Positions 892-14,440 are shown, counted from the stretch's first letter. The stretch is 14,440 nt of DNA from a virus (IMGVR_UViG_2939147180_000003); one strand, 5' to 3'. Numbers and translations: made by a program. The notes: generated from the letters alone by a model not told the origin.

Positions 892-981
892 GGAGAGATG
901 CCGGAGCGGCTGAACGGACCGGTCTCGAAAACCGGAGTAGGGGCAACTCTACCGGGGGTTCAAATCCCCCTCTCTCCGCCA
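892..981 (+). tRNA. serU: tRNA-Ser (anticodon CGA)
   Basis: 90-nt sequence GGAGAGATGCCGGAGCGGCTGAACGG...CTCTCTCCGCCA: 7-bp acceptor stem GGAGAGA/TCTCTCC, anticodon stem CCGGT/ACCGG with loop CTCGAAA (anticodon CGA), long variable arm typical of Ser, T-arm GGGGGTTCAAATCCCCC, 3' CCA encoded. Matches enterobacterial serU from memory. Confidence 0.9.
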
Positions 982-1027
982 CTATTCAAACACTTACAGC
1001 ATTCCCTTTCAGTGACCTGCATCCCGA

Positions 1028-3806: not shown

Positions 3807-3826
3807 TTTGTGTGAAATAAAGCTAG

Positions 3827-5021
<1,195 letters not shown>

Positions 5022-5247
5022 CTAACATTTTTAACATGTTCAATGTGATTTTTAAGACGTACTTTGAAGTTTTCCATGCATCCTCCATGCAAAGTGAAAA
5101 CCTGCTGTTAAATCAAAGCAAGTCACAATCCCGGATAGGCTTCATACAAGCCAATCCCCCACAGGGATTGAGTTATGCAAGCGAATCAATCTCAGAGCTT
5201 TTAACATGTATGGAGCTTAGAGATATTGTCCGTTAGACCATATAAGC

Positions 5248-5724
5248 TTAAGCTCTGGCTTTCGTTTGTTTTTTTCCATCTTCCTCCTGCTCTGCCCATC
5301 TCCTTATCTTCATCTCTAATGAGTCTAAATATGCTTTAGCATCGCTATCTACCCAGCCAGGTATACGCTGTCCTTGCTCTAAGAGGACAAAATCAATGAT
5401 AGCCTTTTTTTCTCTCGAAGCCTTATTATAGAGCTCGTCAATAGAACCATTTTTAACTATGGGATCTGTTGCGGGCTCACATGTATCAGTTAGCGGGTAT
5501 CCCTTTAGTCCCCAGTGCTCGGGGCCCACAACATCAGAAAAGTAGTTCCAAAGCTCTGGTAGCTTCTCTTTCGATATGGAGCCTTTATTGATCCAGTCAT
5601 GGATTGATGGGGGTTTTATTTTGAAATGACGTGCGATTTCCGCCTTACTCTTGGCAGAACCTATTGAAAGCTTCTTGTCTATGGCCTGCTCGATCGCTCG
5701 GCCCAATTCTTTACCACTAAGCAT
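5248..5724 (-). CDS. Prophage repressor, HTH (Cro/C1-type) with non-peptidase C-terminal domain (RacR-like architecture)
   Basis: 158 aa; N-terminal HTH (SKAEIARHFKIKPPSIHDWINKG); no GDSM / Ser-Lys S24 motifs in the C-terminal half; divergent from a cro-like gene across an operator cluster; GAGGA upstream of ATG 5724. Confidence 0.7.
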   Translation of the reverse strand: MLSGKELGRAIEQAIDKKLSIGSAKSKAEIARHFKIKPPSIHDWINKGSISKEKLPELWNYFSDVVGPEHWGLKGYPLTDTCEPATDPIVKNGSIDELYNKASREKKAIIDFVLLEQGQRIPGWVDSDAKAYLDSLEMKIRRWAEQEEDGKKQTKARA

Positions 5725-5793
5725 TGCCTAATAATCCTCATAACCTATAGCTTAGGCAATTCCTATTGGTTGTTTATTAGGCTTAGCCTAATA
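5716..5793. promoter_or_regulatory. Divergent immunity control region: three operator-like palindromes and a PR-like promoter
   Basis: Perfect 7-3-7 palindrome ATTAGGC-TTA-GCCTAAT at 5776-5792; degenerate copies at about 5751-5767 (CTTAGGC-AAT-TCCTATT) and 5716-5732 (ACTAAGC-ATT-GCCTAAT, overlapping the repressor start). Plus-strand TTGGTT (5765-5770), 17 nt, TAATAT (5788-5793). Confidence 0.55.
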
Positions 5794-5825
5794 TCTGCTT
5801 GTGTGGAAATCATAGGAATCCGTTT

Positions 5826-6089
5826 ATGAGAAGTAGCCTTGAAGCAATCAGTGAAGCCTGCCGCATTGTTGGGGGACAAGCCGCTTTGTCAAGGAATCTA
5901 GGCATCTCATCACCAACAGTGAATCAATGGACAACGGGCATTAGGCAAATACCTGCGGAACGATGTCCTGCGATTGAGAAAGCTACTGGTGGTGCTGTCA
6001 CCTGCGAAGAGCTTCGTCCTGACATTGACTGGGCCTATTTAAGAGGTGCAGCAATGCGAAAGCTTAATGTCACTGCATCAAATTTGTAA
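5826..6089 (+). CDS. Cro/YdaS-like HTH regulator
   Basis: Track ORF 5799..6089 trimmed to ATG 5826 with AGGAA upstream; MRSSLEAISEACRIVGGQAALSRNLGISSPTVNQWTTGIRQIPAERCPAIEKATGG... resembles the YdaS/Cro family of the Rac prophage from memory. Confidence 0.75.
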   Translation: MRSSLEAISEACRIVGGQAALSRNLGISSPTVNQWTTGIRQIPAERCPAIEKATGGAVTCEELRPDIDWAYLRGAAMRKLNVTASNL

Positions 6090-6117
6090 CTACCACCCGA
6101 GTTTGAAAGGAGTAGGT

Positions 6118-6570
6118 ATGAACCTCAAAGAAGTCGTGAAATCTATGTGCAAAGCATATCCAGGTGGGCGCGAAGCAATGGCTGGCGCACTGGGAATGAC
6201 GGTGACGCAGTTTAACAACAACCTTTACGAGAAAAACGGCTGTCGTTTCTTCGAAGTCAGCGAACTGGAAGCGATGGAGGACATCTCGAATACATCTCAC
6301 CTGGCTGAATATTTTGCCCGCCGTCGTGGTGCTCTGCTGGTGGATGTTCCGCACCTGGAAGAACTGGACCGCGTGGACTTGTTTAGCCGGGCAATGCGTA
6401 CCTCTGCCGCCAGGGGGCAGGTTGATCAGATTATCGAACAGGCGCTTGAAGATGGCGTTATTGAAAGGCACGAGGCCGAAGAAATCATGGTGCATCACCG
6501 CCGTCACCTGGCAGCTCGTGAAGAAGAGATTGCCGCAATCATCACGCTTTTTTCACGCAAAAAGAAGTGA
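6118..6570 (+). CDS. YdaT/CII-like regulatory protein
   Basis: Track ORF 6046..6570 trimmed to ATG 6118 preceded by AAGGAG (gaaaggagtaggtATG); position immediately after cro-like gene as in Rac racR-ydaS-ydaT. Family assignment is by position and recalled similarity only. Confidence 0.55.
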   Translation: MNLKEVVKSMCKAYPGGREAMAGALGMTVTQFNNNLYEKNGCRFFEVSELEAMEDISNTSHLAEYFARRRGALLVDVPHLEELDRVDLFSRAMRTSAARGQVDQIIEQALEDGVIERHEAEEIMVHHRRHLAAREEEIAAIITLFSRKKK

Positions 6571-6597
6571 CGCCAGCGAGTTGCAGCTCCTGGCGTC

Positions 6598-7437
6598 GTG
6601 GCGTGTCGTTATCAGTGGAGATTACTAACGCATGAACAGTTTATCAACACAATACCGCAGGTCGCAACTTGTAGCGCGGCCAGTTCCTGGTGGAGCAGGG
6701 CCGGTGCAGTTCGTGTAGAGCCATTCGTTGGTGGTGGGTCGGTATTCCTGAACAGCGAAAAGCACGCAGATTACCTGCTGGCGGACGTTAACCCGGACCT
6801 GATTAATCTGTATCAGATGTTAGCGGTCGTGCCGGATGAAGTGGAATTGAAGGCCCGCTGGATGTTCGAGCACATGCGGTCACCAGAGCGCTATGAGCTG
6901 ATCCGTTCCGAGTTCAACTCTCAGACGCTGGATGCTACTGAACGCGCAGCTGCATTCCTGTATCTCAACCGGCATTGCTTCAATGGTCTGATGCGCTACA
7001 ACCAGGCGAACAAGTTCAATGTGGGCTGGGGAGGCTACAAGGCTCCGTATTACCCGATGGATGAGATGAAAGCCTTCGCGGCTATGGCGCATAACTGCGT
7101 ATTCATGACGGCTGATTACCGCCGGACAATCAGCCTGGCCGGGAAAGGGGATGTGGTTTACTGCGATCCGCCTTACGAACCGATGCCGGGAACAACCGGA
7201 TTCACCGCCTACGCCGCTGGTGGTTTTAACTGGGAGAACCAGGTAGACCTGGCGAAGCAATGCGTATCAGCCTTTCACCGTGGGGCTCGGGTAGTGATTT
7301 CTAACTCATCTGCACCGAAGGTTCTCGACCTGTACCGGGAGCATGGTTTTAACCTGCAATTCATCAACGCGCGCCGTTCGATCTCCTGCAAAAGCAGTAC
7401 GCGGGAAGTCGCAAAAGACGTTGTAGCGATCCTTTAA
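6598..7437 (+). CDS. dam: DNA adenine (N6) methyltransferase, Dam family
   Basis: VEPFVGGGSVF (SAM motif I) and CDPPYEP (DPPY catalytic motif); alignable along its length to E. coli Dam from memory. Only in-frame start is GTG at 6598 with no good SD; same frame as the upstream gene, separated by a single TGA. Confidence 0.8.
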   Translation: MACRYQWRLLTHEQFINTIPQVATCSAASSWWSRAGAVRVEPFVGGGSVFLNSEKHADYLLADVNPDLINLYQMLAVVPDEVELKARWMFEHMRSPERYELIRSEFNSQTLDATERAAAFLYLNRHCFNGLMRYNQANKFNVGWGGYKAPYYPMDEMKAFAAMAHNCVFMTADYRRTISLAGKGDVVYCDPPYEPMPGTTGFTAYAAGGFNWENQVDLAKQCVSAFHRGARVVISNSSAPKVLDLYREHGFNLQFINARRSISCKSSTREVAKDVVAIL

Positions 7438-7446
7438 GGGGGCTAA

Positions 7447-8289
7447 ATGAAACTGACTTTACCATTTCCACCGAGCGTAAATAGTTACTGGCGCGCCCCG
7501 AGCAAGGGACCGCTGAAAGGCAGGCATCTGGTAAGCGAGACAGGGCGCAAGTTCCAGCAGGCAGCGAGAGCGGCGATTATTGAGCAACTGCGGGCCGTTC
7601 CCCGGCCATCCTCAGATCTGGCCGAGGTTCACATAAACGTTGTTGAGGGCGCGGGGCTTGAGCTTGATCCTGATGATGATTCACAGGTTCTTAAAGCGAT
7701 TGGTGGCGGTCGCCTGCTTAATATTGTCACCTTTACTAAGTCAGGGACTTACACTCCAACTAAAGGGACGAAAAGAGTGCGGGTGAAAGTTTGGGGAGCG
7801 GGGGGAGGTGGCCAGAATGCTCCAGTTAGTGTGGGCGCATCTGGAGGTTGTGCTGGTGGATTTTCGGAAGGGTTATTTAATATTTCTGATAACGAAACTA
7901 TATCTGTGACGATAGGTACTGGTGGCAGTGCTGTTGCTGCTGGTGTCTCGTCTAAAGGCGGGAATGGTGGTGATACAAGGTTCGGGAGTTTAATCTCAGC
8001 TACTGGAGGGAGTGGTGGCGGGGCTACAGTTCCTGCTGGAGGTATCGGAAGTGGCGGGAACATTTTAAATATTACTGGCGGAATATCTCAAGGTGGTCTG
8101 TATTATGGTTCTGATGCTTTTATTGGCGGGGCTGGAGGATCTGCATTTTCATCAACGGGTGGCAATGGCCACTTCGGTAGTTCTGGCGATGATGGCGGTT
8201 TCCCCGGCTCAGGTGGTGCCGGGGGGAATGGTAACTATTCATCAGGAAAAGGAGCGAATGGTTTAGTTTACCTTGAAGAGTTTTCCTGA
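7447..8289 (+). CDS. Chimeric ORF: RusA-like Holliday-junction resolvase N-terminal region fused to a glycine-rich tail-fibre-type C-terminal domain
   Basis: aa 1-96 RusA-like (LPFPPSVNSYWR, DPDDDSQV, GGGRLLNIVTF); aa 111-280 Gly-rich repeats (VKVWGAGGGG ... GANGLVYLEEFS). Synonymous codon usage shifts from G/C-ending to A/T-ending near nt 7720-7780. ATG 7447 with AAGGGGG upstream. Confidence 0.65.
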   Translation: MKLTLPFPPSVNSYWRAPSKGPLKGRHLVSETGRKFQQAARAAIIEQLRAVPRPSSDLAEVHINVVEGAGLELDPDDDSQVLKAIGGGRLLNIVTFTKSGTYTPTKGTKRVRVKVWGAGGGGQNAPVSVGASGGCAGGFSEGLFNISDNETISVTIGTGGSAVAAGVSSKGGNGGDTRFGSLISATGGSGGGATVPAGGIGSGGNILNITGGISQGGLYYGSDAFIGGAGGSAFSSTGGNGHFGSSGDDGGFPGSGGAGGNGNYSSGKGANGLVYLEEFS

Positions 8290-9359
8290 TTATTTTTGCT
8301 TTGAGCGTCCGCCCTTATTTTTGCTCTAATTTTAATTAGTGGCTTGTCTATTAATATTACACAAACGATCCCAAGTGCAATTGATATTGGGTAGCCTAAT
8401 AAAAAGATGGATAAGCCACGATTTTCACCACCAATAGCAAGCCATGCTAGAAATCCACCAAAATATTGACAAAGAAAAATTGGATAGGCCAGGTCACCAA
8501 ACCACTTGAGTATTTTCTCAAGATGTATGTTTGTCTTTATTTTTAATAATACCAGGGTTGTAAACAATGCTATTACATTATTGGTGTAGTAAAGTATTAT
8601 GTTGTACTGACCTAATGGATTAATTGTATATAAATGCCAATTGGTAATAAAAATCCCGATGCAAATAAATGTTATTAAAAAAGCTTTGTGTGGAGAAAGA
8701 TACATAGCTTTGAACTTTCTATGGGCAAAATAACCCAGAGAACCCATGCTAAAAGGAAGTGTTGCAGCAAGGAATGGGAAATACGCCATATCAAAAGAAT
8801 GGTGTACTACATATACGTAAGCATGATAAAGCAGTGAAAGCAGAATCGACGTAATGGCTGTAAATTTATTTCGGGCTATGAAAAGCCACAATAAAAAATA
8901 ACATGTTATCTCAACACCCACTGACCATGATGATGTGACTATTCTGAATCTATTACCATCAATAGCAAAGTGATAAATGGATGAAAAGGCACCGAATGGA
9001 TTTGCTACAGCATTATCAGAAAGGAAAGCCCAGGGGAAGATTAAGAGGTTTCCTAATAAATCTCCAGGTAAGAAATTGCCTGTCCAGTTTGAGTGGAATT
9101 CCTTTGCGGATGGAATTAATTTTATAATAAGAAAGCCCATGACGAGAAAAAATATATATGCCGGGAATAACCTCAGTATTCTATTTTTCCAAAACATAGA
9201 GAAGTTGAACTTGTATGTTTCATGCAAAATGTATGTTATTAAAAAACCACTAATAACATAGAAGCAATTCACTGCAAAGTTGCCAAGTGCAGGTATGCGA
9301 GCCGTTAAGTGAAAAGCAATGACGCACGATGCCAAAAAAAACCTTATTAGGCCAAGCAT
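8268..9359 (-). CDS. Acyltransferase family 3 integral membrane protein (O-antigen / polysaccharide O-acetyltransferase-like)
   Basis: 363 aa, about 10 hydrophobic segments, AT-rich coding sequence; resembles phage Oac/OafA-type acyltransferases. Start ATG 9359 overlaps the stop of the upstream small ORF; 3' end overlaps the convergent 7447..8289 ORF by 22 bp. Confidence 0.8.
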   Translation of the reverse strand: MLGLIRFFLASCVIAFHLTARIPALGNFAVNCFYVISGFLITYILHETYKFNFSMFWKNRILRLFPAYIFFLVMGFLIIKLIPSAKEFHSNWTGNFLPGDLLGNLLIFPWAFLSDNAVANPFGAFSSIYHFAIDGNRFRIVTSSWSVGVEITCYFLLWLFIARNKFTAITSILLSLLYHAYVYVVHHSFDMAYFPFLAATLPFSMGSLGYFAHRKFKAMYLSPHKAFLITFICIGIFITNWHLYTINPLGQYNIILYYTNNVIALFTTLVLLKIKTNIHLEKILKWFGDLAYPIFLCQYFGGFLAWLAIGGENRGLSIFLLGYPISIALGIVCVILIDKPLIKIRAKIRADAQSKNNQENSSR

Positions 9360-9622
9360 TATTTTATCTCCGCGCCAATATCGCGCATTTTATTTATTAC
9401 ATTGTTAAGTTGCTCATCAGACAGAACAAGCTGAGCTGCAATATAAAACAGTATGTGTCTTGACATTACCCTGGGGCTCTCTCCGCCAGTGTATTTCCGC
9501 CATTGGCTATCGCTGGCTACACCTGCGAGCCCTGCCATTTGGTTTCCGGAGTAATTTAGTGCGGATTTCAGTCTGGCTAAATCTTCCTGCGTTGGAGGGG
9601 TGTATTTATTTATTAAAATCAT
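9359..9622 (-). CDS. Small XRE-like HTH protein upstream of the acyltransferase
   Basis: Track ORF 9359..9646 trimmed to ATG 9622; segment YSGNQMAGLAGVASDSQWRKYTGGESPRVMS fits an HTH_3-type pattern; stop/start overlap with the acyltransferase gene (TAATG). Confidence 0.45.
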   Translation of the reverse strand: MILINKYTPPTQEDLARLKSALNYSGNQMAGLAGVASDSQWRKYTGGESPRVMSRHILFYIAAQLVLSDEQLNNVINKMRDIGAEIK

Positions 9623-9723
9623 TCTCTTATTTAACCGTTTAAACACGTAAGGCGATGTTAGCCCTGAAGGGGCGGGGCGTCAATCTTAATTGCTTCATTG
9701 AAAAGATGAAGACAGGAACAGGT

Positions 9724-11718
9724 ATGGACAAAAGATATAATACCGGCAATCCAAGACCTTCAAATAGCATGAAGGATCTGAATGATAACGCCCTGGCGTA
9801 CGATGATTTCCTGAACAGCGAAAGCGATACTTTTATAGATCGTTTTGGTAACGCCCAGGATACGATAATTGGGGCTACTAAAAAAATGGCAGCTGCTACC
9901 GACGCTGTTATTGATGAAGCCCGCCAAAACCTGATCCCTCTCAGCCGGCAGTACATGACGCTGGCGGCGGCGCAGGCGGATATTGCGAATATTCCGGCAG
10001 GTTCAACAACCTATGTCCGCAGTCAGGACGGAAGCTCTCTGGCCGATGAGTATATCAACCTCGCTGGAACGCTGCAGCCAACCGGACGGCGGATGGTTCG
10101 TGACGACTACGCATACCAGGTATCGCCAGACAGCGTGACCCTGGCAGCATATGATCCGGAGACTTCCCGCGTGGCTCCATTTTTAAATACAAGCGGCAGA
10201 TTAATTCAAATCGGTCCTGACGGAAAATATTACGAACTTTTAACCCAACAAGAATCCGAACTCTATGCGCTGGGCCGGGAGGGTTCTATACCGCAGTTTA
10301 TTGGCGGTGAAAAAGTGTGGCGGATGACGGTTGATTCAACCACAAACCAGATCGTTGAAGCTTATACGGTTGGTGGGAAGCACTGGATTTACTCAGACGG
10401 TGGCCTGGTAGCTGTTAATAACGGAAATGGCGGTGGTGGTGGCGACGATGATGCCAACCAGCTCCCTGAGTATGGACTTCATTTGTCAGGGTCTACTGTG
10501 TACCCCTACTCAGAGACAGTGCCTGTATGTTTTATCTTTGTGACTGCTGGGCAATCCAACGCTCGAGGATATTGTCCTGACGCCGATCAAACCATTGTCG
10601 CAGCAACGCCGATATATCCTGATAACGCTTTCATGCTCAGCGGCGGGGTTAGGCGTACAGGGACACGCAGCACTACTCTGGTGCCACTGGTTGAGGCAGT
10701 AAGTGGGACAGATAAAGAAACGGCCGCAAGCGGCCTCGCGAACACCTTCATTCGCGATATGGCTGCAGCTACCGGAATCATGCCGCGCACGCTATCAATC
10801 GTATGTGCGCAGTCTGGTCAGGCTTACGAGTACCAGAAACGGGGTAACCAGGTATATCAGTATCTGCTCGATTCAATCGAAGACTGCGTAACGGCCTGTA
10901 AAGCACGCGGCTGGCTGCCGATTGTTCTCTGCGTTGACTGGATGCAGGGAGAGTCCGACGAGGACTGGTCAGGATTACGAGAAGGAATGTATGAATCACG
11001 GATGAGGCAGTACCAGAGACAAATCACCAGCGACATCATCGCAAGAACGGGTCAAAACGAACCGCCGATTATCGCCATTACCCAGCTGGGGTATGTCAAT
11101 GACGGGCATGGTGCATTTACAGGCCAGTACGCGCGACTGGCGTCGACGCGATTGCACGGAAAAGAGCAATTCAGGCTGGTCAATAGTTTGTACCAGTACG
11201 ATTTTATTTCAGACGGTCTGCACTTGACGTGTGCGGGCCAGAACCGGCGCGGAGCAGCTGTGGCGAGAGCGCTTCTCCAGGAGTGGTTTACGAGCGGCTG
11301 GTCAGGGATGGTTCCGACCAGTTTCGTGTGGAACTCACCCACGCAGATACAAATCAATGTCCCAGCGTATACGAACCTGGTGCTGGACACGACTACGATC
11401 AACACCTCCGGTCTGGCCAATTACGGCTTTAGCTACACGGATGAGACTGGTGCTCCACCTGCTATATCGAGCATCGCGATCAGCTCGGACGGCAAGGGCG
11501 TGCTGATTAACCTGGCGACCGCCCCCTCTGGACGTTTTGGGCGCGTTTCCTATGCGACAGCAGAAAACCCACTTCAGAGCGGCGCATCTGTAAAACCTTC
11601 CGGGCGGACTCTTGGTGCAAGAGGGTGTGTTCGATCTTCCGCTGGAATCATATGGGTGTATGACACATCCGTGACTCTTTACGACTGGCTCCCCGCTTTT
11701 CGTATTAACGTTTTCTGA
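9724..11718 (+). CDS. Tail-fibre/tailspike-like protein with central SGNH-type (sialate O-acetylesterase-like) hydrolase domain
   Basis: Track ORF 9655..11718; likely start ATG 9724 (AGGAACAGGT upstream). GQSN block at aa 276-279 (nt 10549-10560, FIFVTAGQSNARG) and DGLH block at aa 497-500 (nt 11212-11223); Gly-rich linker NNGNGGGGGDDD before the esterase domain. Tail-fibre role inferred from context. Confidence 0.7.
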   Translation: MDKRYNTGNPRPSNSMKDLNDNALAYDDFLNSESDTFIDRFGNAQDTIIGATKKMAAATDAVIDEARQNLIPLSRQYMTLAAAQADIANIPAGSTTYVRSQDGSSLADEYINLAGTLQPTGRRMVRDDYAYQVSPDSVTLAAYDPETSRVAPFLNTSGRLIQIGPDGKYYELLTQQESELYALGREGSIPQFIGGEKVWRMTVDSTTNQIVEAYTVGGKHWIYSDGGLVAVNNGNGGGGGDDDANQLPEYGLHLSGSTVYPYSETVPVCFIFVTAGQSNARGYCPDADQTIVAATPIYPDNAFMLSGGVRRTGTRSTTLVPLVEAVSGTDKETAASGLANTFIRDMAAATGIMPRTLSIVCAQSGQAYEYQKRGNQVYQYLLDSIEDCVTACKARGWLPIVLCVDWMQGESDEDWSGLREGMYESRMRQYQRQITSDIIARTGQNEPPIIAITQLGYVNDGHGAFTGQYARLASTRLHGKEQFRLVNSLYQYDFISDGLHLTCAGQNRRGAAVARALLQEWFTSGWSGMVPTSFVWNSPTQIQINVPAYTNLVLDTTTINTSGLANYGFSYTDETGAPPAISSIAISSDGKGVLINLATAPSGRFGRVSYATAENPLQSGASVKPSGRTLGARGCVRSSAGIIWVYDTSVTLYDWLPAFRINVF

Positions 11719-11727
11719 GGATAAAAA

Positions 11728-12528
11728 ATGAGACTGATTTACACACTAACTGGACTGAATAACCCCTTACTCCCTGTGTACTCACAAACAGCGGCAGAGA
11801 AAGCGATCTCAGAACTATCCCCATCAGTATGGACACCAGTGAAGACAGAGTTTCTAAAAATGGGGTCTGGTGCAAAAGTAGTAGCTATCTCTAACCGATT
11901 AGATGGCGGACTTTTCAAGTCACTGGAGACCCTCGAGCCATCCACAAAGCTGAATGGTTCTGTTTTGCAGGGGCTTAATTTCTCCGGTGCATCCGGCATG
12001 GCTGGTGATACGGCGGTGGTTATGGACGCAAACATCAATACTTTTGCATTCATCTATCAGCTGCCAGGTGGGGCGCTTCCGGCTACGCCACAGGACAGAG
12101 CGGTTATCGCAACCCAGGAAAGCACACCTCATGGCGTCGGCATTCGTACAACGTCAGCAGGTTCATTCCCGATTTTTCTGAATGGAGGGATCGAGGCCGA
12201 TCTGGCATTTACTCCTAACAATATAGGGCAATCTTTATTCTGCGCTGTAGTTATGTGCTCTAACAAGGCTGCTGGATCCTATGCAATTGCATACCAGCGG
12301 TCAGATCAGTCTGCAGTGACCAGCCGACAAGTGACGGGCTATACAATCCCAGCGTATAGCCCGTCTCAAAAAATGAGTATTGGCGGAGCAGGCAATGGTT
12401 CAGTGTCTCCGTTAACATCCGTTTTGTCAGAATGTTTGGTTTTCCCCGGCAAATATGCATATGGGACCAGCACACTGGATGTCATCCTGGCATATCTGAT
12501 GGAGAGGATTGGAAAAATCACGGCCTAG
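11728..12528 (+). CDS. Hypothetical protein (266 aa) co-transcribed with the esterase tail-fibre gene
   Basis: GAGGA 7 nt upstream of ATG 11728, 10 bp after the upstream stop; no family motif recognised. Position is analogous to tail-fibre assembly or distal fibre genes. Confidence 0.55.
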   Translation: MRLIYTLTGLNNPLLPVYSQTAAEKAISELSPSVWTPVKTEFLKMGSGAKVVAISNRLDGGLFKSLETLEPSTKLNGSVLQGLNFSGASGMAGDTAVVMDANINTFAFIYQLPGGALPATPQDRAVIATQESTPHGVGIRTTSAGSFPIFLNGGIEADLAFTPNNIGQSLFCAVVMCSNKAAGSYAIAYQRSDQSAVTSRQVTGYTIPAYSPSQKMSIGGAGNGSVSPLTSVLSECLVFPGKYAYGTSTLDVILAYLMERIGKITA

Positions 12529-12721
12529 AATTTGCCGAATGCATCCGAGTCGGTCCGCAGCGATGGAGCAGGAGAGAGTCGGCGGCCGCCGCCGGATAAT
12601 GACTGAAGAAGTGGTGGAGCGGTGCCGCAGAATGCTGGAGAACGGCGCTACCCGGCAGCAGGTGGCTGATGTGACAGGCGTGGACGTGAAAACAATCTAC
12701 AAGTACCTCCCGGCGACTTGA
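12509..12721 (+). pseudogene. Remnant of a Hin/Gin/Pin-type serine DNA invertase (C-terminal HTH fragment only)
   Basis: AAMEQERVGGRRRIMTEEVVERCRRMLENGATRQQVADVTGVDVKTIYKYLPAT resembles the invertase C-terminus (GRIGGRRPKLT ... RQQ.A...GV..T.Y+Y.PA) with an apparent internal deletion; the resolvase catalytic domain is absent. Confidence 0.5.
12662..12717 (+). repeat. Direct repeat copy 1 (invertase 3' end, about 55 bp)
   Basis: TGGCTGATGTGACAGGCGTGGACGTGAAAACAATCTACAAGTACCTCCC; related copies at 13241-13292 and 13449-13505. Confidence 0.6.
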
Positions 12722-12798
12722 AGGCAAAGATTTCACTACTTTTCCTGATATGTTACGTTTGGCTTAATCAATTCATTCAGCTTTGAAAACAGTTTGGT

Positions 12799-13221
12799 TT
12801 GTTCGTGAACGGTAAGAAAACAATAAGTTTTGAGCAATTTTTAACTATTAACAGCAATCTTGTTTCCATCTCAGATACATGGGCTGACTTGTGGGCGTTA
12901 ATTTTTCACACGGGTTTAAGCGCTGGAAGGCTGCTGAGTATTCGATATGATGATATTGATGGTGACTTGATACTGATACGAAAACAGGGTCACCTGAAGG
13001 AGCTACGTGTTAAATCAACCCCTCCAGTGGAGGGGATCATTGCTCGTAGAAGAGAACGCTATCCAGAAGATGTTTTTTTATTTCAGAGCCATTCTAACCG
13101 TGTGAAGTACCAATGCCGGCCGGTCACTATAATTGCTTTCAACGCCGCTTTACGTCGCGCCGCTAGATCATTACCAGACGTTAACGTAAGCAGTAGTAGC
13201 GCGAGAAACATACCGGACTAA
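12799..13221 (+). pseudogene. Tyrosine-recombinase-like fragment (FimB/FimE-like core, truncated at both ends)
   Basis: No ATG anywhere in frame (TTG/GTG only); ALIFHTGLSAGRLLSIRYDDIDGDLILIRKQG resembles the box-I region of small tyrosine recombinases; the HxLRH and Tyr-containing C-terminal region are missing. Followed in frame after one stop by a copy of the invertase-3' repeat. Confidence 0.35.
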
Positions 13222-13240
13222 CCGCCTGTCCAGTCGCGTG

Positions 13241-13292
13241 TGGCCGATGTGACAGGCGTGGGGGTGAAGACTATTTACAAATATTTGCCAGT
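13241..13292 (+). repeat. Direct repeat copy 2 (invertase 3' end)
   Basis: TGGCCGATGTGACAGGCGTGGGGGTGAAGACTATTTACAAATATTTGCC; high identity to copy 1 with scattered substitutions; encodes VADVTGVGVKTIYKYLP in the frame of the upstream recombinase-like ORF. Confidence 0.6.
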
Positions 13293-13304
13293 ACAATACG
13301 GCGA

Positions 13305-13338
13305 TAAAAACCCCCTTGAGCAGGCACACTCAAGGGGA
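13305..13338. terminator. Strong hairpin, terminator-like on the minus strand
   Basis: Perfect 9-bp stem CCCCTTGAG (13313-13321) / CTCAAGGGG (13330-13338), 8-nt loop; A-run 13307-13311 upstream gives a T-run after the hairpin on the minus strand; no U-tract on the plus strand. Confidence 0.3.
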
Positions 13339-13448
13339 AAATACTACATAACATCATTGCTGTGTGCGTCTTTGCGCTCGTCTATCTTCCAAGAATATGC
13401 CTAAAGCTTCCAGATATTTCTGGTCTGAGCTGTTACATCATGGAGTAG

Positions 13449-13505
13449 GTGCCGATGTGATAGGTTAAGAGCGAAGATGATCTGTAAGTACCTTCCGACG
13501 TCGAG
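13449..13505 (+). repeat. Direct repeat copy 3 (degenerate)
   Basis: GTGCCGATGTGATAGGTTAAGAGCGAAGATGATCTGTAAGTACCTTCCGACG; clearly lower identity than copy 2, with in-frame stops. Confidence 0.45.
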
Positions 13506-13841
13506 GGGCAATGACCATGAATTTGGGTCTATACCATCCCAATTCATATATTCTTTGTAAGTCTATGAAATATAGAGCAAAGTATTCTGTTCGAAATGAA
13601 CCATATGGAATAGCCAAAGGCTAAAATGCCCAGAGTAAAAACAACAATCAGCAAGTCCGTCTGTGACATCTTATATCCATTTTGCAGTAGCAGGTTTTGA
13701 GAAAAGATAGTTCATAGTTGGCACATAGACAACATAATCACTAAGTGAAACCAATATCAGAGGCTAAAAGGTGACTGGTTTCCTCCTCAGTGTTCCTGAT
13801 TGATAGCTGGAACCTGTATTGATCAGATCTCTTAATGAATC

Positions 13842-13861
13842 TACTGTATATAAAAACAGTA
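13842..13861. promoter_or_regulatory. LexA box (SOS operator)
   Basis: TACTGTATATAAAAACAGTA: CTGT-N8-ACAG with AT-rich spacer, full match to the LexA consensus and, as I recall, identical to the E. coli umuDC operator. Lies 18 nt upstream of ATG 13880, just before GGGAGGTG. Confidence 0.8.
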
Positions 13862-13879
13862 TTTTCGGGAGGTGAAGTT

Positions 13880-14038
13880 ATGCCGCGAAACTCAGATATC
13901 GAAATAGCCTGGCGTCAGGCAATTGTCATTGAGCCTAATGGCCGTCGCACCGTGACAACGTCCGGTTTTATCCGGGAACTCGCAAAAGTTAACTGGATAT
14001 GGTCACCGCGCCAGGCTAACCAGTGGATAGAGCACTGA
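13880..14038 (+). CDS. Small protein (52 aa) immediately downstream of the LexA box
   Basis: Track ORF 13835..14038 trimmed to ATG 13880 with GGGAGGTG 5 nt upstream; MPRNSDIEIAWRQAIVIEPNGRRTVTTSGFIRELAKVNWIWSPRQANQWIEH; no family recognised. Confidence 0.5.
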   Translation: MPRNSDIEIAWRQAIVIEPNGRRTVTTSGFIRELAKVNWIWSPRQANQWIEH

Positions 14039-14047
14039 CATTCCGGG

Positions 14048-14440
14048 ATGTCTCAACGCAGGAAGGCGATGAGCTCACGTTCCAGTTATACAACCCAAAC
14101 GGAGGGCTATAACGTGGGATTTCCGTCGCCAGCTGCTGACTATGTTGAACGGCGTCTGACCGTTGATTCACTCTGCGGTACCGGCCCCAATACTCGGATA
14201 GTACAAACAGAAACCGGCTATGCCGTAGTGGATTGCTTCGTAAAACCAAAGCAAGGAGATACCGTTTTAATTCAATACGGCGGCGGCACTGATTTTGCAA
14301 AAATTATGGGCCGGGCATTTATTACACGAGACGGTGAAGCGTTGGAAGGTGAGGCCCTGGATGATGTTACAGTTGTCGGGGTAGTGACATTCGTTATCAA
14401 TCGGATAGGGAAGGATGATGATGATTATCCAGTAATATGA
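14048..14440 (+). CDS. UmuD-like (peptidase S24 fold) protein, apparently lacking the Ser nucleophile motif
   Basis: GFPSPAADYVERR at aa 24-36 matches the UmuD region around the Cys24-Gly25 cleavage site; C-terminal DDVTVVGVVTFVINRI resembles the UmuD C-terminal strand; TGYAV occupies the place of SGDSM. Alternative start ATG 14069. Stop TGA is the last codon of the window and overlaps an ATG (ATATGA). Confidence 0.65.
   Translation: MSQRRKAMSSRSSYTTQTEGYNVGFPSPAADYVERRLTVDSLCGTGPNTRIVQTETGYAVVDCFVKPKQGDTVLIQYGGGTDFAKIMGRAFITRDGEALEGEALDDVTVVGVVTFVINRIGKDDDDYPVI

Follow-up and report, generated by a model that had tools for sequence, protein, structure and literature searches.

Background

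In the Gifsy prophages, short repressors are inactivated by anti-repressors of about 80 amino acids (aa) produced from the LexA-controlled dinI-gfoA-irsA operon, which lies near the prophage end (PMC3121763). RacR and DicA are listed in the non-cleavable GfoR/GtgR group of short repressors (PMC3121763). Rem is the anti-repressor of DicA (PMC10448788), and the SOS anti-repressor of N15 is AntC, the product of a different gene (PMC3121763). Umu-like genes are widespread on plasmids and phages, where their role has been called unclear (PMC11541004). The stretch of DNA analysed here, IMGVR_UViG_2939147180_000003 (14,440 nucleotides (nt); "the window" hereafter means this whole stretch), carries an immunity repressor of the RacR family and, near its right end, a LexA box followed by a small open reading frame (ORF) and a umuD-like gene. 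A preliminary description of this DNA had proposed that the LexA-controlled genes act as an SOS-dependent anti-repressor or, failing that, form a umuDC-like operon with an extra leader ORF. Our analysis leads to a variant of the second proposal: with a probability of roughly 0.6, positions 13819-14440 correspond to a mobile two-gene SOS cassette of umuDC-type descent, composed of a leader gene and an orphan UmuD' analogue of the HumD type. The operon and its leader ORF are retained from that proposal, while umuC is missing and the UmuD-like gene encodes an already truncated, non-catalytic analogue of UmuD'.

Two earlier reports concern comparable genes. The HumD protein of phage P1 is reportedly a functional UmuD' analogue that works with the host UmuC, as described by McLenigan in 1999. 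The impCAB genes of plasmid TP110 are said to form a three-gene umu-like operon with a small first gene (work of Lodwick, 1990), and ImpC was reportedly found to be DinI-like by Yasuda et al. in 1996/1998.

Operator and promoter of the cassette

The LexA box of the cassette, TACTGTATATAAAAACAGTA, is letter for letter the operator of E. coli K-12 umuDC. It has the features of an E. coli LexA operator, namely a CTGT-N8-ACAG palindrome, an AT-rich centre and a location at a promoter. As in the preliminary description, it precedes a strong ribosome-binding site (GGGAGG) and a 52-codon ORF beginning with the ATG at 13880. Sites with one mismatch to CTGT-N8-ACAG occur in the window at the frequency expected by chance. 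One of them, AGCTGCAATATAAAACAGTA (9434-9453), is located inside a minus-strand ORF (9359-9646) and is probably fortuitous. This ORF belongs to phrog_20491, shows a weak RstR-like match and lies between the acyltransferase gene and the SASA-esterase tail gene.

The DNA upstream of K-12 umuD was compared by eye with the window and exhibits the same hexamers, the same spacing and the shared flanking sequence ATTGATAGC. A generic sigma-70 promoter scan flagged nothing at the LexA box. Judged from this resemblance, the segment 13819-13847 is homologous to the umuDC promoter and would be the promoter of the cassette. The operator shared with K-12 umuDC, the homologous promoter region and the invariant MGFPSPAxDY start of the second protein of the pair all suggest that the cassette descends from umuDC.

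The UmuD'-like protein

The UmuD-like gene announced downstream of the small ORF is indeed present and ends exactly at 14440; its product has no catalytic Ser. The most likely start is the GTG at 14114 (giving a protein MGFPSPAADY...) rather than an ATG at 14048, because the PHROG profile aligns from residue 23 of the longer ORF, because annotated relatives are 108 aa long and because the family opens with the invariant motif given above. The TAA of the leader gene is found one or two nt before this GTG, and the Shine-Dalgarno (SD) sequence lies inside the last leader codons. This is the geometry of translational coupling.

The protein has the S24 beta-fold in its UmuD' form. In the family, the position of Ser60 is occupied by Ala, Val or Thr and that of Lys97 is not conserved. 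The Ser-Lys dyad and the Ala/Cys-Gly cleavage site are therefore both missing, the protein beginning at the Gly. The 12-residue hairpin of UmuD' is also absent and an acidic C-terminal tail, DDDDYPVI, has been added. Profile scores are low: the window protein gives no match to Pfam PF00717 at E <= 0.01, a threshold which the 125-aa subtype (L026) does pass with 43.4 bits, and it scores 33.7 bits against the HumD model NCBIfam NF051876 (cutoff 120), residues 23-49 alone aligning below threshold. Length and start agree with the processed UmuD' form of the HumD type. Because the catalytic residues are replaced, the sequence starts at GFPSPA and the S24 and HumD scores stay below threshold, the protein is best described as a pre-truncated, non-catalytic UmuD' analogue.

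In both subtypes of the UmuD'-like protein, the C-terminus consists of a stretch of acidic residues and then Pro plus a hydrophobic residue (DDDDYPVI, EFDDCPVM, DDGNPFI; window 14414-14437). The C-terminal tip of SSB, DDDIPF, which recruits repair and replication proteins, looks similar to these tails.

One of the closest described counterparts of the UmuD'-like protein is P1 HumD. Both are phage-borne orphans with no umuC beside them, both start at the position of the UmuD cleavage product, so that no RecA-mediated processing is needed, and the N-terminal 27 residues of the window protein match the HumD model. Unlike HumD, the window protein scores far below the model cutoff and lacks the catalytic Ser and the 12-aa hairpin. 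To our knowledge, no conserved 79-aa leader gene precedes P1 humD. With E. coli umuDC the cassette shares the LexA operator, the promoter region and the UmuD' fold; it differs by the lack of umuC, of the cleavable N-terminal 24 residues and of the Ser-Lys dyad, and by the insertion of a leader gene between the promoter and the umuD'-like gene. The preliminary description had raised the question whether a umuC-like gene lies beyond 14440. According to the annotation of E. coli HS, this place is occupied by attR, a partial tRNA copy about 200 nt past the window end, and then by yodB.

The leader gene

The 52-aa ORF behind the LexA box had been taken for a gene in its own right. The frame is open, but it is the stub of a longer gene. 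A DNA alignment with three phage relatives reveals a 7-bp deletion after 14036 that generates a TGA, and the relict stop TAA is still present at 14110-14112; intact relatives encode 79 aa. The PGAP annotation also treats 13880-14112 as a frameshifted pseudogene. The stub aligns with positions 1-52 of the 79 positions of phrog_3893 and is devoid of residues 53-79, the most conserved part of the family alignment. Of 44 E. coli genomes matching the leader stretch, 29 still have the 7 nt and the other 15 show the deletion. The deletion places the 52-codon stub and the 130-codon ORF in one frame, separated by the lone TGA (14036-14038). Natural fusions of leader and UmuD'-like sequences exist in the representative library (P0268, P0318 and P0354), although some may be assembly artefacts.

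The 79-aa protein is predicted to adopt a winged-helix fold. It has no match in Pfam, NCBIfam or PADLOC, and PADLOC gave no match for any ORF of the cassette or its neighbourhood. An exhaustive profile search among 1.84 billion representatives retrieved 172 small proteins, none of them tied to a characterised family; the longer matches of that search are fusions to UmuD'-like or UmuC sequence. The arrangement resembles impCAB in its small leader, UmuD-like gene, occasional UmuC-like gene and SOS control, and one of the loci described below (L060) has the order leader, umuD, umuC. In contrast to ImpC as reported, the 79-aa leader is not related to DinI (hhalign probability 0.1%) and is a predicted winged helix.

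Distribution of the cassette

The cassette was examined in 73 enterobacterial loci, one per species genome. In 61 of them, the small gene is preceded by a perfect LexA box at 13-45 nt from the ATG (median 20). The small gene is followed in 48 loci by a non-canonical UmuD'-like gene, in 8 by umuC and in one by a canonical umuD-umuC pair; umuC thus adjoins the cassette in 9 of the 73 loci. The eight loci in which umuC directly follows the leader come from Pantoea and related genomes (L049, L050, L054, L055, L058, L059, L069 and L077). In seven of these (not L050), an ORF resembling the UmuD' core without the GFPSPA arm lies 3' of umuC. In L060, the leader gene, a canonical cleavable umuD and umuC share one LexA box. 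Both gene orders are unusual for operons of DNA polymerase V (Pol V). A further locus with the small gene followed by umuC (L018) came from a frameshift-ridden long-read assembly and was set aside in favour of loci from cleaner genomes.

The pair is also found with its LexA box on 1,095 PLSDB plasmids, 956 of which are conjugative, and on a SopA/ParB phage-plasmid. In these records and in L092 and L093, the pair, with a perfect LexA box, commonly forms part of the backbone of conjugative enterobacterial plasmids; its neighbour in pENT-c88 is a primase gene. The cassette occurs in 63 phage records. The copy of phage Kp4882-3 shows 94% (102/108) and 98% (51/52) identity to the proteins of the window. 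In phage KpF5, the UmuD'-like gene is reduced to its 3' 236 bp, the small gene is missing and CTGT-N8-ACAG occurs nowhere in the 38 kb. In phage HK225, no UmuD' partner accompanies the small gene, whose LexA box is shared with a divergent dinI. This layout recalls that of phiKO2 (reportedly described by Casjens in 2004) and N15, where LexA-controlled, divergent dinI and umuD homologues likewise constitute SOS accessory genes of temperate phages beside the tail-fibre region; phiKO2 was not among the tblastn matches of the 79-aa protein.

Existing annotations call the cassette only "DNA polymerase V" or "hypothetical", and no functional study of the leader/UmuD'-like pair was found in the searchable literature. 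The homology of promoter and operator, the umuC and umuD neighbours and the spread over plasmids and phages therefore indicate an SOS accessory module rooted in umuDC-type operons.

Possible role of the cassette proteins

By analogy with HumD and Pol V, we infer the following role for the two proteins. LexA would occupy the umuDC-type operator, with which the promoter overlaps. After DNA damage, LexA cleavage would allow transcription of the operon, and intact copies would produce the 79-aa winged-helix protein together with the translationally coupled UmuD' analogue of about 108 aa. The N-terminus of the latter already coincides with Gly25 of UmuD (GFPSPAADY...), the residue uncovered when UmuD undergoes RecA-stimulated cleavage. 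Since it is pre-truncated and has lost the Ser-Lys machinery, no RecA-dependent activation would be needed. Most likely it would then pair, as HumD reportedly does, with a UmuC-type polymerase, which would be the host UmuC for orphan cassettes and their own umuC in the Pantoea and Erwinia versions. The outcome would be early translesion synthesis on the DNA of the element or of the host. The winged-helix protein may be a regulator or a third subunit.

Several points weigh against this proposal. The UmuD'-like protein falls under both the Pfam S24 and the HumD NCBIfam thresholds. Without the 12-aa hairpin, it may have lost the ability to bind UmuC. Of the pocket with which UmuD binds RecA, the residues (Y52, position 54 and F94; PMC9926225) are only partly retained. 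Moreover, a role restricted to translesion synthesis leaves the induction of phage phiES15, discussed below, unexplained.

A bolder version, which we put forward tentatively and with the odds against it, is that the leader and the catalytically dead UmuD' analogue, sometimes with umuC, constitute an unrecognised, cleavage-independent variant of Pol V spread by plasmids and temperate phages. The small protein would then be a third subunit, or a regulator replacing the checkpoint of RecA-dependent UmuD activation.

The loss of the catalytic dyad, together with the invariant, cleavage-site-like GFPSPAxDY N-terminus, also fits a different role, that of a modulator of the SOS response or of mutagenesis. 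A dead UmuD' mimic could sit in the groove of activated RecA (RecA*) or pair with the host UmuD/UmuD', tuning the cleavage of LexA, CI and UmuD or damping Pol V in the manner of DinI or PsiB, with the winged-helix partner assisting or regulating it. UmuD, LexA, CI and DinI do bind the same RecA groove (PMC9926225), the small gene of HK225 shares its LexA box with dinI, and the conjugative plasmids on which the pair is frequent are known carriers of anti-SOS genes (PMC11541004). However, the residues by which UmuD contacts RecA are poorly kept (alignment against PMC9926225), umuC lies directly beside the cassette in 9 loci, which points to a polymerase as partner, and some 90% of the umu-like genes on plasmids are reported to lack the orientation needed for early expression from the T-strand (Samuel et al., PMC11541004). 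We regard a modulator as an unlikely but serious alternative.

Immunity region and the anti-repressor hypothesis

The absence of a peptidase domain from the repressor, on which the anti-repressor hypothesis was built, is borne out. The protein passes the RacR model (Table 1) and Pfam recognizes an N-terminal helix-turn-helix (HTH) domain alone, with no match to Peptidase_S24; its sequence includes no Ala-Gly or Cys-Gly dipeptide. Phage KpF5 has a "prophage repressor" of exactly the same sequence (100% identity). The two genes transcribed away from it are assigned to phrog_35 and phrog_101, and this pair (5799-6570) is the lytic side of the immunity switch. The region thus has the composition of a RacR-type immunity module, with a RacR equivalog divergent from ydaS/ydaT-like genes. 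A search of the window for further anti-repressors gave no Ant, KilAC or Rem-type match, the ORFs of the left arm being assigned to PHROGs of unknown function.

According to the hypothesis, the small protein, the UmuD-like protein or both would bind this repressor and free its operators, like GfoA/GftA or Tum. The layout of the window is compatible with it. As in the Gifsy dinI-gfoA-irsA operon and phage 186 tum, a LexA box and a small gene are located at the prophage end distal to immunity, here the attR end, and the repressor is devoid of S24 (PMC3121763). RacR and DicA are grouped with the non-cleavable GfoR/GtgR repressors (PMC3121763), and DicA has an anti-repressor in Rem (PMC10448788). 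The small gene stands directly behind the only LexA box of the window and outside the immunity region. A further argument comes from phage phiES15 of Cronobacter (L009), which is induced by ultraviolet light, has a 134-aa repressor limited to an HTH and carries in its 40 kb a lone LexA box, that of the cassette.

Most of the comparative evidence goes the other way. The small gene is a pseudogene in the window. The leader protein yields no BLASTP alignment with Rem or DinI, belongs to a different PHROG from Rem (phrog_3893; Rem, phrog_340) and reaches hhalign probabilities of 0.2% with Rem and 0.1% with DinI, a relative of the C-terminal half of Tum; this comparison covered Rem, as the member of the GfoA family, and DinI, whereas GfoA, GftA and Tum themselves were not compared. 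Nor is the cassette associated with non-cleavable repressors. Nine of the ten typed cassette phages carry repressors of the cleavable HTH+S24 type, either by Pfam (Kp4882-3, Kp4856-1, ENT1, PDP110P1 and HK225) or as close homologues of these (klb_E, PDP110P2, Kp4871-1 and Kp4864-1), and phiES15 is the only HTH-only case. Kp4882-3 combines its 94%-identical cassette protein with an unrelated repressor, whereas KpF5, whose repressor is the same as that of the window, has neither the LexA box nor the small gene. The cassette is common on conjugative plasmids, where there is no phage immunity for it to counteract, it also lies within umuC/umuD operons, and E. coli HS retains it although its immunity region is lost.

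It is thus very unlikely that the cassette is a switch inactivating the prophage repressor, and neither the small ORF nor the UmuD-like gene can be upheld as the proposed SOS anti-repressor. The small probability that we still grant to such a mechanism is due to the phiES15 observation. It seems equally improbable that, in phages whose repressor has only an HTH (phiES15, for example), the cassette also serves as the SOS inducer.

The element is a prophage remnant

The window element is a broken E. coli prophage remnant of about 13.5 kb (Table 1). From left to right, mtfA and tRNA-Ser(cga) are followed by the integrase, the ParB-like gene, IS5, the immunity region and the Dam methylase gene. 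The insertion sequence lies between the ParB-like gene and the repressor, where it splits the early leftward arm. In the fusion ORF, residues 1-63 correspond to RusA (phrog_34) and residues 81-280 to tail-fibre phrogs. The deletion spans rusA to the tail-fibre gene, so that the late region upstream of the latter is entirely gone, and the element has no lysis or head genes. The junction is common to 9 genomes. Because some 25 kb were lost in between, the cassette lies only 8 kb from the immunity region.

E. coli HS harbors a different, complementary deletion derivative of the same serU prophage. It has kept the packaging and tail genes and has lost the N-terminus of the integrase and the whole early region (immunity and replication). 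Its 100% identity with the window starts only at 7634, within the fusion ORF, and window positions 920-996 match positions 17062-17139 of the HS locus at 95%. The rightmost 791 bp (13650-14440) are 100% identical in 15 complete E. coli genomes, including HS, PCN061 and 13P484A.

Two relics of the HTH_7 C-terminus of a DNA invertase are found upstream of the cassette (region 12509-13404). They are encoded by a 44-nt direct repeat whose copies (12662-12705 and 13240-13283) are 84% identical, and between them lies a 140-aa integrase-like fragment (12799-13221, phrog_19751). Phage vB_EcoS-733R5 also has this trio of relic, fragment and relic upstream of the cassette.

Table 1. Features of the window, with coordinates and supporting observations
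Feature	Position	Strand	Observation
mtfA	window start		
tRNA-Ser(cga), integration site, attL side	892..981	+	ARAGORN
Tyrosine integrase and ParB-like gene	right of tRNA-Ser(cga)		
IS5 insertion, prophage left arm	3816..5032	-	transposase ORF 3973-4953; terminal inverted repeats 3816-3842 / 5006-5032
RacR-family immunity repressor, 158 aa	5248..5724	-	NCBIfam NF049929, 254 bits (cutoff 200)
YdaS/Cro-like gene	5799-6089	+	Pfam YdaS_toxin, 3.7e-30; divergent from repressor
CII/YdaT-like gene	6046-6570	+	Pfam Phage_CP76, 3.9e-14
Dam methylase, then fusion ORF, acyltransferase, SASA-esterase tail protein, DNA invertase relics, LexA-box module	gene order after immunity region		
RusA::tail-fibre fusion ORF	7447..8289	+	junction 7633/7634 marks internal deletion
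Promoter-like TTGATC, 17 nt, TACTGT (putative)	13819..13847	+	likeness to E. coli umuDC promoter region
LexA box TACTGTATATAAAAACAGTA	13842..13861	+	sole perfect CTGT-N8-ACAG in the 14.4-kb window
Shine-Dalgarno GGGAGG of leader ORF	13867-13872	+	
Leader pseudogene (phrog_3893, 79-aa winged-helix protein, predicted)	13880..14112	+	open part 13880-14038, 52 aa
Non-catalytic, pre-truncated UmuD'-like gene, 108 aa	14114..14440	+	GTG start (most likely); SD GGAGGG 14101-14106

The cassette of the window is itself decaying, with a frameshifted leader, no umuC and a remnant prophage around it. Could the whole cassette of this strain then be an inert relic, non-functional DNA at the edge of a decaying prophage? 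Besides the frameshift, the lost late region and the IS5 copy, the separate deletion derivative in HS and the 236-bp remnant of the UmuD'-like gene in KpF5 are in keeping with this. We nevertheless consider it quite improbable. The UmuD'-like ORF, its SD sequence, the LexA box and the promoter region are all intact, the 791-bp query containing the cassette is conserved without a change across the 15 genomes, and the UmuD'-like protein is 94% identical to the copy of a Klebsiella phage.

Conclusions

For this window, the finding means little: the cassette is an ordinary module carried along, in decayed form, by a dead prophage, and the window does not contain the induction circuit that had been proposed. 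It also calls for caution, since the combination of a non-cleavable repressor and a distal LexA box is insufficient to call a Gifsy-type anti-repressor. Its broader interest lies in the LexA-controlled pair formed by a winged-helix leader and a non-catalytic UmuD', which recurs in more than 70 enterobacterial species, 63 phage records and more than 1,000 mostly conjugative plasmids. Among the umu-like operons that mobile elements carry, this cassette family represents an uncharacterised variant. If it indeed supplies a ready-made UmuD' to the UmuC of the host or of the element, mobile elements would be able to bypass the RecA checkpoint that delays error-prone synthesis. Such a bypass would matter for SOS mutagenesis as well as for how resistance evolves in Klebsiella and E. 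coli that carry plasmids.

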